Positions 1-64,000 of a stretch of DNA of 64,000 nt are shown here, in pieces. Source of the DNA: Shigella phage ESh24; the sequence record ON528734. One strand, 5' to 3'. The notes below the pieces were generated by a model. That model was not told the DNA's origin, did no database searches, and saw only the letters and a list, made by a program, of their open reading frames with translations. Position 1 is the first letter of the stretch; the number at the start of each line of letters is the position of its first letter. Made by a program: the position numbers and the translations under genes.

Positions 1-1074
1 TGTGAAAAAGCAGCTACACTTGCTAACACAAATCAGCTGAACCGTAAAATTCTTATTAACAGTCTTTACGGTGCTCTTGGTAATATTCATTTCCGTTACT
101 ATGATTTGCGAAATGCTACTGCTATCACAATTTTCGGCCAAGTTGGTATTCAGTGGATTGCTCGTAAAATTAATGAATATCTGAATAAAGTATGCGGAAC
201 TAATGGCGAAGATTTCATTGCAGCAGGTGATACTGATTCGGTATATGTTTGTGTAGATAAAGTTATTGAAAAAGTCGGTCTTGACCGATTCAAAGAGCAG
301 AACGATTTGGTTGAATTTATGAATCAGTTCGGTAAGAAAAAGATGGAACCTATGATTGATGTTGCATATCGTGAGTTATGTGATTATATGAATAACCGCG
401 AGCATCTGATGCATATGGATCGTGAAGCTATTTCTTGCCCTCCGCTTGGTTCAAAGGGTGTTGGTGGATTTTGGAAAGCGAAAAAGCGTTATGCTCTGAA
501 CGTTTATGATATGGAAGATAAGCGATTTGCTGAACCGCATCTAAAAATCATGGGTATGGAAACTCAGCAAAGTTCAACGCCTAAAGCGGTCCAAGAAGCT
601 CTTGAAGAAAGTATCCGTCGTATTCTTCAAGAAGGCGAAGAGTCTGTTCAAGAATATTATAAGAACTTTGAGAAAGAATATCGTCAACTTGACTATAAAG
701 TTATTGCTGAAGTAAAAACTGCGAACGATATAGCGAAATATGATGATAAAGGTTGGCCAGGATTTAAATGTCCGTTCCATATTCGTGGTGTGCTAACTTA
801 TCGTCGAGCTGTTAGCGGTTTAGGTGTAGCTCCAATTTTGGATGGAAATAAAGTAATGGTTCTTCCATTACGTGAAGGAAATCCATTTGGTGACAAATGC
901 ATTGCTTGGCCGTCGGGCACAGAACTTCCAAAAGAAATTCGTTCTGACGTACTGTCTTGGATTGACTACTCAACCTTGTTCCAAAAATCGTTTGTTAAAC
1001 CGCTTGCAGGCATGTGTGAATCGGCTGGTATGGACTATGAAGAAAAAGCTTCGTTAGACTTCCTGTTTGGCTGA
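1..1074 (+). CDS. 43: DNA polymerase gp43, C-terminal part (5' end outside window)
   Basis: Frame is open from position 1; translation contains KILINSLYGALG (family B polymerase motif B) and matches the recalled T4 gp43 C-terminus. Confidence 0.93.
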   Translation, partial: CEKAATLANTNQLNRKILINSLYGALGNIHFRYYDLRNATAITIFGQVGIQWIARKINEYLNKVCGTNGEDFIAAGDTDSVYVCVDKVIEKVGLDRFKEQNDLVEFMNQFGKKKMEPMIDVAYRELCDYMNNREHLMHMDREAISCPPLGSKGVGGFWKAKKRYALNVYDMEDKRFAEPHLKIMGMETQQSSTPKAVQEALEESIRRILQEGEESVQEYYKNFEKEYRQLDYKVIAEVKTANDIAKYDDKGWPGFKCPFHIRGVLTYRRAVSGLGVAPILDGNKVMVLPLREGNPFGDKCIAWPSGTELPKEIRSDVLSWIDYSTLFQKSFVKPLAGMCESAGMDYEEKASLDFLFG

Positions 1075-1245: not shown

Positions 1246-1638
1246 TTGGAGAATGAAATGAAAATCACTATTTTGGTTATTGCATTAGGTCTTACTGGTT
1301 GTGTAGCTCAAGGACCGGTAGTAAATCAGTCTGATGTAGGAAAAATTGTAAATTGTTCAAGTAAATTTTATAATCCTAATGTCAAGTGTTATAAAGAAGC
1401 TCCAAAGCAAACAGTAGAACAAATGCAGGCGAATTTTGACGAAGCTATTCGTCCAGATGAATCTGCTCAAGCATATCGTAATTCGGATGTAATTACACGC
1501 GAAGAAAAAATTGAAAACTACTGCGCCGAGCTTTGGGCTAATTGGGCTAATAATTACCAATGGCGTACTGGTAAAAATGCTCCGATGGAGTATGTAGTGA
1601 ATTCTTATAATTCATGTGTAAAAAATTTGACTAAGTGA
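1246..1638 (+). CDS. Putative lipoprotein (imm.1-like position); start may be ATG 1258
   Basis: N-terminus MKITILVIALGLTGC resembles a signal peptide with lipobox; sits directly upstream of imm. Confidence 0.6.
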   Translation: MENEMKITILVIALGLTGCVAQGPVVNQSDVGKIVNCSSKFYNPNVKCYKEAPKQTVEQMQANFDEAIRPDESAQAYRNSDVITREEKIENYCAELWANWANNYQWRTGKNAPMEYVVNSYNSCVKNLTK

Positions 1639-1645
1639 GGAAAAC

Positions 1646-1897
1646 ATGGAAACTTTAGTAGCAGGTTCAATTTTTATGGTTTTAGTTTCAGGTGTGTTGG
1701 CTATTATTATATACATGCTTCCATGGTTTATCGCCTTGATGCGTGGGTCAAAATCGACAGTAGGAATCTTTTTCACATCTTTACTGTTTAACTGGTCAAT
1801 TATTGGTTGGTTTATTACATTTATTTGGTCAATTGCGGGTGAAACTAAAAAGTCTGCACAACCAAATCAGGTAATTATCATCAGAGAGAAGGAATGA
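1646..1897 (+). CDS. imm: Immunity to superinfection membrane protein Imm
   Basis: 83 aa with two hydrophobic helices; length and position between 43 and 42 match T4 imm. Confidence 0.8.
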   Translation: METLVAGSIFMVLVSGVLAIIIYMLPWFIALMRGSKSTVGIFFTSLLFNWSIIGWFITFIWSIAGETKKSAQPNQVIIIREKE

Positions 1898-21812: not shown

Positions 21813-21839
21813 ATTCCCGAAACCAAACGAGGATAAGTG

Positions 21840-23657
21840 ATGATTAAGAATGAAATTAAAATTCTGAGCGATATTGAACATATCAAAAAGCGTAGTGGCA
21901 TGTATATTGGCTCTTCTGCTAATGAAATGCATGAGCGCTTTCTGTTTGGTAAATGGGAAAGTGTTCAGTATGTACCTGGTCTTGTTAAGCTTATTGATGA
22001 AATTATCGATAACTCAGTAGATGAAGGTATTCGTACTAAGTTTAAATTCGCGAATAAAATTAATGTTACCATTAAAAATAATCAGGTAACAGTTGAAGAT
22101 AACGGTCGCGGTATTCCACAAGCGATGGTTAAAACACCTACCGGTGAAGAAATTCCTGGTCCAGTTGCTGCTTGGACTATTCCAAAAGCAGGTGGTAACT
22201 TTGGCGATGATAAAGAACGTGTCACCGGTGGTATGAATGGTGTTGGTTCTAGTTTGACAAACATTTTTTCTGTGATGTTTGTCGGTGAAACTGGCGATGG
22301 TCAAAATAATATTGTAGTTCGTTGTTCAAATGGCATGGAAAATAAATCATGGGAAGATATTCCTGGAAAATGGAAAGGAACTCGTGTTACTTTCATTCCA
22401 GATTTTATGTCATTTGAAACTAATGAGCTGTCCCAAGTTTATCTTGACATTACACTGGATCGTCTCCAGACGCTTGCTGTAGTTTATCCTGATATTCAAT
22501 TTACCTTTAATGGTAAAAAGGTTCAGGGCAATTTTAAGAAATATGCACGACAGTATGATGAGCATGCTATTGTTCAAGAACAAGAAAATTGTTCTATTGC
22601 GGTTGGTCGTTCACCGGATGGATTTCGTCAATTAACTTACGTGAATAACATTCATACTAAGAATGGTGGCCATCACATTGATTGTGTTATGGATGATATT
22701 TGTGAAGACCTTATTCCACAAATCAAACGTAAGTTCAAAATTGATGTCACTAAAGCACGTGTCAAAGAATGTTTGACTATCGTTATGTTTGTCCGTGATA
22801 TGAAAAACATGCGATTTGACTCTCAAACTAAAGAACGACTTACTTCTCCATTTGGCGAAATTCGTAGTCATATTCAACTTGATGCTAAAAAGATTTCACG
22901 TGCTATTTTAAATAATGAAGCAATTTTAATGCCAATTATTGAAGCTGCTTTGGCTCGTAAATTGGCGGCAGAAAAAGCAGCAGAAACTAAAGCAGCTAAA
23001 AAGGCTTCTAAAGCTAAAGTTCATAAACATATTAAAGCGAATCTTTGTGGTAAAGATGCTGACACTACATTGTTCTTAACCGAGGGTGATTCAGCTATCG
23101 GATATCTTATTGATGTTCGCGATAAAGAACTTCATGGCGGTTATCCATTGCGTGGTAAAGTTCTTAATAGCTGGGGTATGTCATATGCCGATATGCTTAA
23201 AAACAAAGAACTATTTGATATTTGCGCAATCACTGGATTGGTTCTTGGTGAAAAAGCTGAAAACTTGAATTATCATAATATTGCTATTATGACCGATGCT
23301 GACCATGATGGTCTAGGAAGCATTTATCCTTCTCTTCTTGGATTTTTTAGTAATTGGCCAGAACTGTTTGAGCAAGGAAGAATTCGCTTTGTCAAAACTC
23401 CTGTAATCATCGCTCAGGTCGGTAAAAAACAAGAATGGTTTTATACAGTCGCTGAATATGAGAGTGCCAAAGATGCTCTACCTAAACATAGCATCCGTTA
23501 TATTAAGGGACTTGGCTCTTTGGAAAAATCTGAATATCGTGAGATGATTCAGAACCCAGTATATGATGTTGTTAAACTTCCTGAGAACTGGAAAGAGCTT
23601 TTTGAAATGCTCATGGGAGATAATGCTGACCTTCGTAAAGAATGGATGAGCCAGTAG
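21840..23657 (+). CDS. 39: DNA topoisomerase II large subunit gp39, contiguous 605-aa form (gene 39/60 fusion as in T2/T6)
   Basis: 605 aa from ATG 21840; GHKL ATPase N-terminus; C-terminal part corresponds to what T4 encodes separately as gp60. Confidence 0.93.
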   Translation: MIKNEIKILSDIEHIKKRSGMYIGSSANEMHERFLFGKWESVQYVPGLVKLIDEIIDNSVDEGIRTKFKFANKINVTIKNNQVTVEDNGRGIPQAMVKTPTGEEIPGPVAAWTIPKAGGNFGDDKERVTGGMNGVGSSLTNIFSVMFVGETGDGQNNIVVRCSNGMENKSWEDIPGKWKGTRVTFIPDFMSFETNELSQVYLDITLDRLQTLAVVYPDIQFTFNGKKVQGNFKKYARQYDEHAIVQEQENCSIAVGRSPDGFRQLTYVNNIHTKNGGHHIDCVMDDICEDLIPQIKRKFKIDVTKARVKECLTIVMFVRDMKNMRFDSQTKERLTSPFGEIRSHIQLDAKKISRAILNNEAILMPIIEAALARKLAAEKAAETKAAKKASKAKVHKHIKANLCGKDADTTLFLTEGDSAIGYLIDVRDKELHGGYPLRGKVLNSWGMSYADMLKNKELFDICAITGLVLGEKAENLNYHNIAIMTDADHDGLGSIYPSLLGFFSNWPELFEQGRIRFVKTPVIIAQVGKKQEWFYTVAEYESAKDALPKHSIRYIKGLGSLEKSEYREMIQNPVYDVVKLPENWKELFEMLMGDNADLRKEWMSQ

Positions 23658-23686: not shown

Positions 23687-23712
23687 TAATTTGGGCAAAT
23701 GAGGATATTGAA

Positions 23713-33652: not shown

Positions 33653-33932
33653 ATGATTATTGATTCTCAATCTGTGGTTCAATATACAATCAAAATTGAT
33701 ATTCTAGAAAAGCTATATAAGTTTTCTACCAAATTTATACCATTCAATTGTTAATGAATTAGTTGAAGAATTACATCTTGAGAATAACGATTTCTTGATT
33801 GGAACTTATAAAGACCTCTCAAAAGCAGGATATTTTTACGTAATTCCAGCTCCAGGAAAAAGTATTGATGATATATTAAAAACTATAATGATTTACGTCC
33901 ATGATTACGAAATTGAAGATTATTTCGAATGA
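33653..33932 (+). pseudogene. Apparent frameshifted ORF (33 aa + 59 aa in +1 frame), possibly disrupted arn-like gene
   Basis: ATG with AGGGGAAGG RBS opens a 33-aa frame ending at 33754; the +1 frame continues open to 33932 with no start codon of its own; combined about 92 aa. Confidence 0.3.
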
Positions 33933-50063: not shown

Positions 50064-50082
50064 AATAACGTGTGGCGGAAAT

Positions 50083-50430: not shown

Positions 50431-50473
50431 TTATTTAGCTTCATAAAATGTATTATAATATATAAGGTACTAA

Positions 50474-55220: not shown

Positions 55221-55896
55221 ATGAGCACAGTTTTTAATACAAATCCAGTTGATGTTTTAAAAGAACCTATGTTTTTTGGTTCAGGTCTTGGTATTGCGCG
55301 TTATGATATTCAGCGGCATCGAGTATTTGAAGAACTTACTGAGAAGTCTTTATCATTTTTCTGGCGTCCTGAAGAAGTAAACTTAATGATGGATGCTGCG
55401 CAATTTAATAAGCTTCCTCAGTATCAGCAAAATATTTTTACTAATAACCTGAAGTATCAATCACTTTTGGATAGCATTCAGGGTCGTGCGCCATCTGCTG
55501 TACTTATGTCATTAATTTCAGACCCGAGTCTTGATACATGGGTTGCTACATGGACTTTTAGTGAAACTATTCACAGTCGTTCATATACACATATCATGCG
55601 AAATCTTTATACTGATCCATCGAAGGTATTTGATGAGATTGTATTAGATGAAGCTATTATGAAACGCGCTGAATCCATTGGACGTTATTATGATGATGTT
55701 CTGATTAAAACCCGTGAATGGGAAAATGCTAAAGAATTTGTAGAACTAGCTAAAGAATCTCCTGATGCCGACTTTCGTTTAAACAGGGCTATTAAACAAG
55801 AAGCCGAAGCTAAACGCGCTTTAATGAAATCTCTTTACCTCTGTTTACACGTTATTAATGCCTTAGAAGCTATTCGTTTTTATGTATCTTTTGCGT
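55221..55896 (+). CDS. nrdB: Ribonucleotide reductase small subunit NrdB, exon 1
   Basis: 225 codons ending ...FYVSFA followed by the intron; boundary placed by analogy, accurate to a few nt. Confidence 0.8.
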
Positions 55897-56981
55897 AAAA
55901 TGCGCCTTTAAACGGTAACGTTTATCGAAAACTCCTTTAATTGCTGGAAAGTCCTTTATAGGAAAACTAGCAGCCAAGGTTTTGCTTGCACCTTTAATTA
56001 GTATAATATGATTATACTTTTAAGAGGATGCACAATTGAACTATAGAAAAATTTGGATAGATGCTAACGGACCTATACCTAAAGATTCTGATGGAAGAAC
56101 ATACGAAATCCATCATAAAGACGGTAACCGTGAAAATAATGATTTAGATAATTTGATGTGCCTTTCTATACAGGAACATTATGATATACATTTAGCTCAA
56201 AAAGATTACCAGGCTTGTCATGCTATAAAGCTTAGAATGAAATATTCTCCTGAAGAAATTTCTGAATTAGCTTCTAAAGCCGCAAAATCTAGAGAAATCC
56301 AGATTTTTAATATCCCTGAAGTACGAGCTAAAAATATTGCCTCTATTAAATCTAAGATAGAAAATGGTACATTTCATCTTTTAGACGGTGAAATACAGCG
56401 TAAATCTAATTTAAATAGAGTTGCATTAGGTATACATAATTTTCAACAAGCTGAGCATATTGCAAAAGTTAAAGAACGCAATATTGCAGCTATAAAAGAA
56501 GGTACTCATGTATTTTGCGGTGGTAAAATGCAGTCAGAAACTCAATCAAAACGGGTAAATGACGGTTCACATCATTTCTTGTCAGAAGACCATAAGAAAA
56601 GAACATCAGCAAAAACATTAGAAATGGTTAAGAACGGGACCCATCCTGCACAAAAAGAAATCACATGTGATTTCTGCGGTCACATTGGTAAAGGTCCTGG
56701 ATTTTATCTAAAACATAATGACAGATGTAAATTAAATCCAAATAGAATTCAATTGAATTGTCCATATTGTGATAAGAAAGATTTATCACCATCAACATAT
56801 AAACGATGGCACGGCGACAATTGCAAAGCAAGGTTCAACGACTAGTCTTCGGACGTAGGGTCAAGCGACTCGAAATGGGGAGAATCCCTCTGGGATTGTG
56901 ATATAGTCTGGTCTGCATAGTAATATGTAGCAGTTCATAAGAGAACGGGTTGAGAATTAGCGAGCTCAATCGAACATAACG
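55897..56981 (+). mobile_element. nrdB group I intron (about 1085 nt) carrying a full-length I-TevIII gene
   Basis: 3' end ...TCGAACATAACG parallels the td intron 3' end; exon 2 frame resumes immediately after. Confidence 0.75.
56036..56845 (+). CDS. I-TevIII: Homing endonuclease I-TevIII (HNH), full length
   Basis: 269 aa; HNH motif EIHHKDGNRENNDLDNL; C-terminal Cys-rich zinc finger. Confidence 0.8.
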   Translation: MNYRKIWIDANGPIPKDSDGRTYEIHHKDGNRENNDLDNLMCLSIQEHYDIHLAQKDYQACHAIKLRMKYSPEEISELASKAAKSREIQIFNIPEVRAKNIASIKSKIENGTFHLLDGEIQRKSNLNRVALGIHNFQQAEHIAKVKERNIAAIKEGTHVFCGGKMQSETQSKRVNDGSHHFLSEDHKKRTSAKTLEMVKNGTHPAQKEITCDFCGHIGKGPGFYLKHNDRCKLNPNRIQLNCPYCDKKDLSPSTYKRWHGDNCKARFND

Positions 56982-57484
56982 GTACCTTTAACTTCCATAA
57001 GAACATGGAAATCATGGAAGGTAATGCCAAGATTATGAAGTTCATTGCACGCGATGAACAGCTTCACCTTAAAGGCACCCAATATATTATTCGTCAGCTT
57101 CAATCCGGTACTGATGGTGATGAATGGGTTAAAATTGCCAAAGAGTGTGAACAAGAAGCAGTTGATATTTTCATGGAAGTTAACCGCCAAGAAAAAGATT
57201 GGGCAGTTCATTTATTTAAAGATGGCGATGTTCCTGGATTAAATACAAATAGCATGTGGAGCTTTATTGATTACTTAACTGTATCTCGTATGAAACAGTG
57301 TGGTCTTCCATGCCCGATTACCGATGCTCCGGTTAAACATCCATATCCTTGGATTCGTGAATACCTTAATTCTGATAATGTTCAATCCGCGCCGCAAGAA
57401 GTAGAACTGTCATCTTATCTTGTTGCACAGATTGATAATGATGTTGATGATAAAGTTATGATGAGTTTTAAAAAATACTTTTAA
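56982..57484 (+). CDS. nrdB: Ribonucleotide reductase small subunit NrdB, exon 2
   Basis: In-frame continuation ...NMEIMEGNAKIMKFIARDEQLHL...; C-terminus matches recalled T4 NrdB. Confidence 0.8.
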
Positions 57485-57511: not shown

Positions 57512-59099
<1,588 letters not shown>

Positions 59100-62485: not shown

Positions 62486-62725
62486 ATGCTGCTAAGTGAA
62501 AAACCGATTACTGTTAAAGAATTCCAAGAAAAAGTTAAGTTATTTGCACAGGAATTGGTAAATAAGGTTTCTGAACGATTTCCTGAAACATCGGTTCGTG
62601 TTATTACCGAAACTCCTCGTTCAGTATTAGTAATTGTGAATCCAGGTGATGGCGATCAAATATCGCATCTTAAACTGGATTTTGATGGATTAGTTGAAGC
62701 ACAAAGGGTGTATGGCGTACTATGA
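62486..62725 (+). CDS. Hypothetical protein (79 aa)
   Basis: GAGGAAAA RBS. Confidence 0.55.
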   Translation: MLLSEKPITVKEFQEKVKLFAQELVNKVSERFPETSVRVITETPRSVLVIVNPGDGDQISHLKLDFDGLVEAQRVYGVL

Positions 62726-63060
62726 TGAATTTAACTGATATAATTGATAATTGTCTTGAAAATGATACTGGCGATCATAGAGCGCTTGATTCTGAAACAG
62801 CACAGTTCATTAGAATAACTTTAATGAATGATACTCTGGTGAATAGTATTCATCCTTCTGTGTATGATGCTATTATTGTGACGAAGTATCCAGTTGAGCT
62901 TCACAAAAAGATGGTTGGCGCAATTTTTATTGATAAGAAAAACCGCTTTAAAGACGGGCAGAATATAATTAGTTCTATTATTAAAAGTATAACTAAACTT
63001 CGTCACGAAATTTATCGTGTTGAAACTGCTAAATCTGCTTATCTGGTGATTATGAAATGA
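62722..63060 (+). CDS. Hypothetical protein (112 aa)
   Basis: ATGA overlap. Confidence 0.55.
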   Translation: MMNLTDIIDNCLENDTGDHRALDSETAQFIRITLMNDTLVNSIHPSVYDAIIVTKYPVELHKKMVGAIFIDKKNRFKDGQNIISSIIKSITKLRHEIYRVETAKSAYLVIMK

Positions 63061-63638
63061 AAGCGAGTACAGTACTTCAAATTGCATATTTAGTATCACA
63101 AGAATCAAAATGTTGCTCCTGGAAGGTAGGAGCAGTAATTGAAAAGAATGGACGTATTATTTCTACTGGGTATAATGGTTCGCCTGCCGGTGGTGTGAAC
63201 TGCTGTGATTATGCTGCCGAGCAAGGTTGGTTGTTGAATAAACCTAAACATACTATCATTCAAGGTCATAAGCCTGAATGCGTATCATTTGGTTCAACTG
63301 ATCGCTTTGTCTTGGCGAAAGAACACCGTAGCGCTCACTCTGAATGGTCGTCTAAAAATGAAATTCATGCTGAACTAAATGCAATTTTGTTTGCTGCACG
63401 AAATGGTTCTTCTATTGAAGGTGCTACTATGTATGTAACACTTTCTCCTTGTCCAGATTGTGCAAAAGCGATAGCTCAATCTGGTATTAAAAAGCTGGTT
63501 TATTGCGAAACATACGATAAAAATAAACCTGGCTGGGATGATATTCTGCGAAATGCAGGTATTGAAGTGTTTAATGTTCCTAAGAAAAACTTGAATAAGT
63601 TAAACTGGGAAAATATCAACGAATTCTGTGGTGAATAA
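63057..63638 (+). CDS. cd: dCMP deaminase
   Basis: 193 aa; zinc-binding motifs HAE and PCPDC. Confidence 0.95.
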   Translation: MKASTVLQIAYLVSQESKCCSWKVGAVIEKNGRIISTGYNGSPAGGVNCCDYAAEQGWLLNKPKHTIIQGHKPECVSFGSTDRFVLAKEHRSAHSEWSSKNEIHAELNAILFAARNGSSIEGATMYVTLSPCPDCAKAIAQSGIKKLVYCETYDKNKPGWDDILRNAGIEVFNVPKKNLNKLNWENINEFCGE

Positions 63639-63875
63639 TGAAATTTCGTTTGGTAAAGCTCACAGCAATTAGTTCTTATTCTAATGAGAACATCTCGTTT
63701 GCTGTAGAGTATAAGAAATATTTTTTTCTCTAAATGGAAACAGTATTATAAAACTGATTGGACTAGTATTGATAGACCATATAGTTGGAAATCTGATTTA
63801 GAAAAATGCCAAAAATTACTTTCCACTCTTAAAGAACGTGGAACAACTCATATTAAAACTGTAATAGGTAAATAA
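63638..63875 (+). pseudogene. Apparent frameshifted ORF at a T7 homopolymer run
   Basis: 31-aa frame stops just after T-run 63721-63727; the +1 frame continues to 63875 with no start codon; one fewer T would give a single ORF of about 78 aa. Confidence 0.35.
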
Positions 63876-64000
63876 ATGAAACTGACAACTGAGCAGAAAG
63901 TAGCAATTCGCGAAATTTTGAAAACTAAATTGTCCATGGGTGTTTCAAACGTAGTTTTTGAAAAGTCTGATGGTACTATTCGTACTATGAAAGGTACTCG
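63876..64000 (+). CDS. Hypothetical protein, 5' part (continues past window end)
   Basis: ATG overlapping previous stop; open to the window edge. Confidence 0.5.
   Translation, partial: MKLTTEQKVAIREILKTKLSMGVSNVVFEKSDGTIRTMKGT

Follow-up and report, generated by a model that had tools for sequence, protein, structure and literature searches.

Gene 31.2 of a T4-like Shigella phage is split by one extra T in a homopolymer run downstream of cd

The DNA analysed here (the window, 64,000 nucleotides of Shigella phage ESh24) belongs to a Tequatrovirus (T4-like) genome. It is oriented opposite to the T4 reference and is 93–98% identical to T4, RB3 and G10400 over most of its length. At its 3' end lie an intact cd gene, the two parts of an interrupted gene 31.2 and the beginning of 31.1 (Table 1). 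The TAA stop codon of cd (63636–63638) and the ATG of 31.2 (63638–63640) share one base, and the short ORF that opens there, MKFRLVKLTAISSYSNENISFAVEYKKYFFL, ends at a TAA (63731–63733) located directly after a run of seven T residues. The +1 frame is open from this run to a second TAA at 63873–63875 (SKWKQ...VIGK), but it holds no ATG, GTG or TTG start codon and is represented by no ORF of at least 20 aa in the ORF listing of the window. The initial annotation, made from the letters alone, had described a frame from 63638 that ends just past the run at 63721–63727, a startless +1 continuation of about 47 codons and a fused product of about 78 aa if one T were removed. These coordinates hold to the base; the continuation comprises 48 codons, and removal of one T from the run yields a product of exactly 78 aa.

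Table 1. Features of the cd–31.2–31.1 locus, the second split gene in the window and lesions of 31.2 in other assemblies
Feature	Position	Strand	Evidence or comparison
cd, dCMP deaminase, 193 aa, intact	63057–63638	+	exact protein on many T4-like contigs with PF00383; annotated cd in T4, RB18 and RB3
Gene 31.2, 5' part (30 native codons followed by a frameshift-made Leu and TAA); 31-aa product	63638–63733	+	100% identical to T4 gp31.2 residues 1–30
T7 homopolymer; lesion is one extra T	63721–63727	+	relatives have T6 (alignments; 18 loci)
3' part of gene 31.2, codons 31–78 and stop, +1 frame, startless	63729–63875	+	amino acids identical to RB3 gp31.2
Start of 31.1 (SH3 beta-barrel / WYL_2 protein), truncated at the end of the window	63876–64000	+	tblastn, T4 gp31.1 residues 1–41, 100% identity
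arn, McrBC restriction inhibitor, split by one extra T (TTT to TTTT at 33723–33726)	33653–33932	+	92 aa in T4
31.2, T5 at the run that is T7 in the window	SRR19902444 locus 1501–1662		DNA alignment
31.2, T3 run farther downstream lengthened by two T	ERZ28657093 locus 1314–1478		DNA alignment
31.2, TGC to TGA nonsense change	SRR25011181 locus 810–980		DNA alignment

A single gene of 237 nt and 78 aa, 31.2, fills the space between cd and 31.1 in T4, RB18, RB3, G9062 and G10400 (NC_000866 131882–132118 in T4, intact and with T6), and in the normal arrangement of the relatives the start of 31.1 abuts the stop of 31.2. All 18 orthologous loci that we fetched, taken from isolate genomes, IMG/VR contigs and 10 ENA/NCBI/Logan contigs with exactly the Cd protein of the window, carry T6 in a 237-nt gene with an intact 78-aa product. 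The run falls at codons 28–30, where the T6 version of the relatives reads TAT TTT TTC TCT (Y F F S). Alignments with G9062, RB18 and RB3 each contain a lone gap column inside the T run with clean flanks. The 31.2 frame of the window thus stops at 63733 after 31 aa because the run at 63721–63727 has seven T residues where relatives have six.

Apart from this base the gene is well preserved. Once repaired, the window protein shows 100% identity to RB3 gp31.2, the two genes differing at four synonymous and no non-synonymous positions; of the unrepaired fragments, one shares 100% and the other 94% identity with T4 gp31.2. The repaired protein matches the phrog_2010 profile (E 4.7e-41, positions 1–77 of 78), and the separate fragments match profile positions 1–30 and 26–78, so the split ORF is not a chance pattern. 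T4 gp31.2 is NP_049827, with the UniProt-style name Y13C, and public gene calls label its homologues PF26895 Phage_T4_Y13C; our Pfam scan of the repaired protein gave no match with a Pfam copy lacking the PF26895 model. A search of 5.8 billion proteins for the family returned only six 90% clusters, and at that sensitivity the family therefore appears confined to T4-like phages. An AlphaFold2 model built on a three-sequence alignment was too poor for use (mean pLDDT 48.6), and our literature search found nothing relevant on gp31.2.

Across the compared loci, substitutions in 31.2 are strongly biased toward synonymous sites (pS 0.14, pN 0.021, pN/pS 0.15) and both halves of the gene are constrained. 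This pattern indicates that 31.2 is a real coding gene under purifying selection and, taken with the identity of the repaired protein to that of RB3, that the frameshift in the window is very recent. Like its T4 counterpart, the window gene lies between cd and 31.1 and starts in overlap with the cd stop, but in the window the frame is broken by the extra T and only the 31-aa N-terminal peptide is in frame. It thus has the profile match and the conserved position (overlap with the cd stop, 31.1 abutting) of the family but lacks a continuous reading frame of about 78 codons. Since the ORF ends after 31 codons with the remainder in the +1 frame, the window carries a frameshifted allele or pseudogene of 31.2 and no intact member of the family.

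It might be argued that the 31-aa ORF is native to this lineage and that the open frame downstream is a coincidence. Nothing beyond the existence of the ORF speaks for such a reading, and we give it practically no credence: the +1 frame, open over 48 codons, encodes gp31.2 residues 31–78 at 100% identity with the RB3 protein, purifying selection acts on the C-terminal half in relatives (pN/pS 0.21), and none of the relatives ends at this position. The comparison with the T4 orthologue downstream of cd, which the initial annotation had named as a check, agrees, the T4 gene being an intact 78-aa ORF with T6. Selection on 31.2, the intact orthologues and the absence of the T7 allele from sequence collections together show that the short ORF is not native.

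That absence extends over every collection searched. We used an exact-word test with a 36-mer centred on the run, which cannot seed on T6 sequence, and among 50,697 phage records it found no T7 allele, while the corresponding T6 35-mer was found in 348 (267 of them exact) and the T5 version in none. When a 601-nt window query was compared with the phage records, all 60 of the matches listed spanned 600 nt. Pattern scans likewise returned no T7 allele from IMG/VR (three contigs for the T6 control) or from metagenome contigs (four for the T6 control), and genome contigs gave none for T7 or for the T6 control. The exact 31-aa product is absent among 153 billion gene positions, and complete E. coli genomes contain no match for the allele. 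The exact gp37 of the window is not on record either, which places the source genome outside the collections searched. The T7 insertion is therefore private to the window genome among the collections searched.

We considered whether the run serves as a programmed recoding site, by transcriptional slippage or ribosomal frameshifting, or as a phase-variable tract, either of which would set the level of full-length gp31.2. Recoding sites are conserved, and T4-type phages use E. coli RNA polymerase. The out-of-frame arrangement of the window is not conserved, as the 348 phage records all hold the in-frame T6 and none holds T7 or T5. For ribosomal frameshifting the motif also points the wrong way: the heptamer U UUU UUU is of the −1 type, and a ribosome on the window allele would instead need a shift of +1 (or −2) to regain the native frame, and a −1 shift leads into an unrelated tail (FSLNGNSII...). 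The 73 nt downstream (63728–63800) are predicted to fold with an energy of −9.8 kcal/mol, which is no better than that of shuffled sequence (z −0.31). A programmed ribosomal frameshift site was rejected on all three grounds, namely conservation, direction of the slippery motif (TA T TTT TTT C) and downstream structure.

In favour of transcriptional slippage, E. coli RNA polymerase slips detectably from runs of seven T on (Koscielniak et al. 2018, PMC6260861). GFP reporters in that study were rescued by insertion slippage at about 5% for T7 and about 10% for T8, and by deletion, which was reported only for T8, at 10%; in mRNA, insertions at a T7 tract had a frequency of 0.75% (PMC6260861). Deletion is the direction of slippage that would restore the frame of the window allele. 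[quoted passage not shown] 2005, PMC1088944); the run here is only 7 nt. The combination that marks programmed slippage, a long A/T run with a conserved requirement for ORF fusion, is lacking at this locus. Like the rescue systems of these two studies, the window has an A/T run, here seven T in the sense strand, just upstream of a premature stop, a geometry in which a small fraction of transcripts could return to frame. However, the run is at the lower limit of the host polymerase and its arrangement is shared by no relative, so that any rescue would be leakage and not programmed. Such incidental leakage to full-length gp31.2 is conceivable because E. coli RNA polymerase begins slipping at seven T.

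Phase variation would be expected to leave tract-length polymorphism, and a T5 version of the same run does occur in one independent Logan assembly (SRR19902444). The phage records contain no such polymorphism, however, T6 being fixed in them. Taken together, these observations make a programmed recoding or contingency site very improbable. A related view is that the T6 run in 31.2 acts as a mutational toggle of T-even phages, to T5 in SRR19902444 and to T7 here, in which case the T7 allele would be attenuated and reversible, with a few per cent of transcripts in frame; we consider this very improbable as well. The initial annotation had offered homopolymer slippage as the simplest cause, whether by sequencing error, phase variation or transcriptional slippage. 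What stands of this proposal is that a one-T change splits a single ORF at a run that is T6 in every orthologue examined; phase variation and programmed transcriptional slippage find no support.

Lesions of 31.2 are not restricted to the window. Three of the six 90% clusters found among the 5.8 billion proteins are disrupted forms, each with a lesion of a different kind (Table 1), although these come from independent Logan and ENA assemblies and could themselves be assembly errors. Together with the window they show that 31.2 has been hit repeatedly in public data and that its T run has slipped both ways. This suggests that the gene is dispensable and its run prone either to slippage or to error.

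Within the window, a second gene is split in a similar manner. In arn the extra T changes AAG TTT CTA to AAGTTTTCTA, which leaves a 33-aa ORF (33653–33754) with the remainder in the +1 frame to 33932. Of the relatives, 25 of 25 matches listed are one base shorter than the window at this site; in exact-word tests on phage records, the 40-mer with the extra T was found 0 times and that without it 413 times, and the exact 33-aa fragment is not on record.

We surveyed the window for further lesions by scoring indels relative to T4, RB3 and G10400 and by tblastn with 107 annotated T4 proteins. Among these 107 genes only 31.2 and arn are split at high identity and no essential gene is split; the other genes that were flagged are either mobile or variable ones that this mosaic lacks, or 31.1, which meets the window end. 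A nonsense scan with the stop-to-stop ORFs of relatives gave matches only in alternative frames that are spurious or in sequence preceding annotated starts, and the scan with annotated T4 coding sequences is the reliable one. The window contains 49 A6, 18 T6 and 3 T7 homopolymers, of which none besides the 31.2 run breaks a gene; A or T runs of at least six number 67, and those of five about 350. One of the other T7 runs is native and in frame in the RNA ligase gene rnlA (58029–58035, + strand; CGT AAG TTT TTT TAC); its length matches that in T4, RB3 and G10400, which indicates that seven-T runs are tolerated in coding sequence.

These results bear on whether the extra T exists in the phage or only in its sequence record. 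If it is an artefact of sequencing or assembly, the phage is truly T6 with an intact 31.2, a miscall survived polishing and the extra T in arn has the same cause. The T7 allele is unique among the public sequences searched, with no second independent sighting, both halves of the gene are otherwise unchanged and the repaired protein equals that of RB3, as a miscall would leave them. The private single-T insertion in arn is a typical residue of imperfect assembly, and two such private insertions across 64 kb would also fit an assembly from long reads or flow chemistry that received little polishing. Against an artefact, only two coding frames among about 100 genes are damaged despite the number of runs of five or more A or T; both lesions are insertions, and one falls in a stretch of just three T, not a typical site of homopolymer miscalls. 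The T7 of rnlA was read at the length found in all three relatives, and 31.2 lesions, including a nonsense substitution, occur in other samples. An artefact is thus a substantial possibility, to which we assign somewhat less than an even chance.

The same observations, together with the restriction of the damage to two small accessory genes, lead us to lean slightly toward a real mutation over an artefact, that is, a private and unprogrammed expansion of T6 to T7 that most likely arose by replication slippage. Streisinger-type frameshifts at homopolymer runs are classical in T4, with hotspots in rII and lysozyme. As in those cases, the window shows a one-base gain within a run of the same base in a gene of a T-even phage, so that an out-of-frame tail follows and translation stops early, but here only a single sequence shows the change, as a fixed difference, and its mutational origin is deduced. 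Strand slippage during phage DNA replication would have added one T, the lesion would have fallen in an accessory gene that is probably dispensable, and the T7 allele might persist because it imposes no cost on the propagation host. Whichever origin applies, this is a one-base frameshift or miscall of an already known kind in a known T4 accessory gene, and its biological weight is small.

A real lesion would end translation from the cd-coupled ATG after 31 aa and leave the C-terminal 48 codons silent save for rare slippage of RNA polymerase or the ribosome on U7. Translational coupling into 31.1 would probably be lost over the intervening 142-nt gap (63734–63875); as ribosomes would stop 142 nt before the 31.1 start, that gene would have to use its own AGG Shine-Dalgarno sequence. 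For annotation, 63638–63875 is best entered as a frameshifted 31.2, either as a pseudogene or as a suspected sequence error, in place of a hypothetical ORF of 31 aa with a 140-nt gap after it. With frameshifts in both 31.2 and arn, the record calls for inspection of the reads at both sites. Should both lesions prove real, the phage would lack gp31.2 and the anti-McrBC protein Arn, which could slightly affect its host range with respect to mcrBC+ hosts; 31.2 would then also be shown to be dispensable.

Some further differences from the reference phages were recorded along the window. In cd.2 (62486–62725), the T4 reference has one additional G relative to the window near the 5' end (62519), and RB3 and G10400 show no indel there; cd.2 is annotated at 76 aa in T4 and 78 aa in RB3 and measures 79 aa in the window, RB18 and G10400. 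At this site the outlier is T4. Small intergenic indels in the window comprise one additional T at 23692, the loss of one A at 50082 and the loss of 2 nt at 50460. The first differs from T4, RB3 and G10400 wherever they align, and the other two differ from RB3 and G10400, which alone cover those sites; with so few relatives, uniqueness to the window genome is not implied.

Several modules of the window are RB3/T6-like and not T4-like. The T4 genes b-gt, segA, segF, segG, mobA, mobE, 60.1, nrdB.1, dexA.1, ac and 38 have no counterpart in it. Gene 39 (21837–23657, + strand) is in one piece of 606 aa, without gene 60 and without the bypass element, and the intron of nrdB (55221–57484, + strand) carries a full-length I-TevIII ORF of 269 aa (56036–56845).
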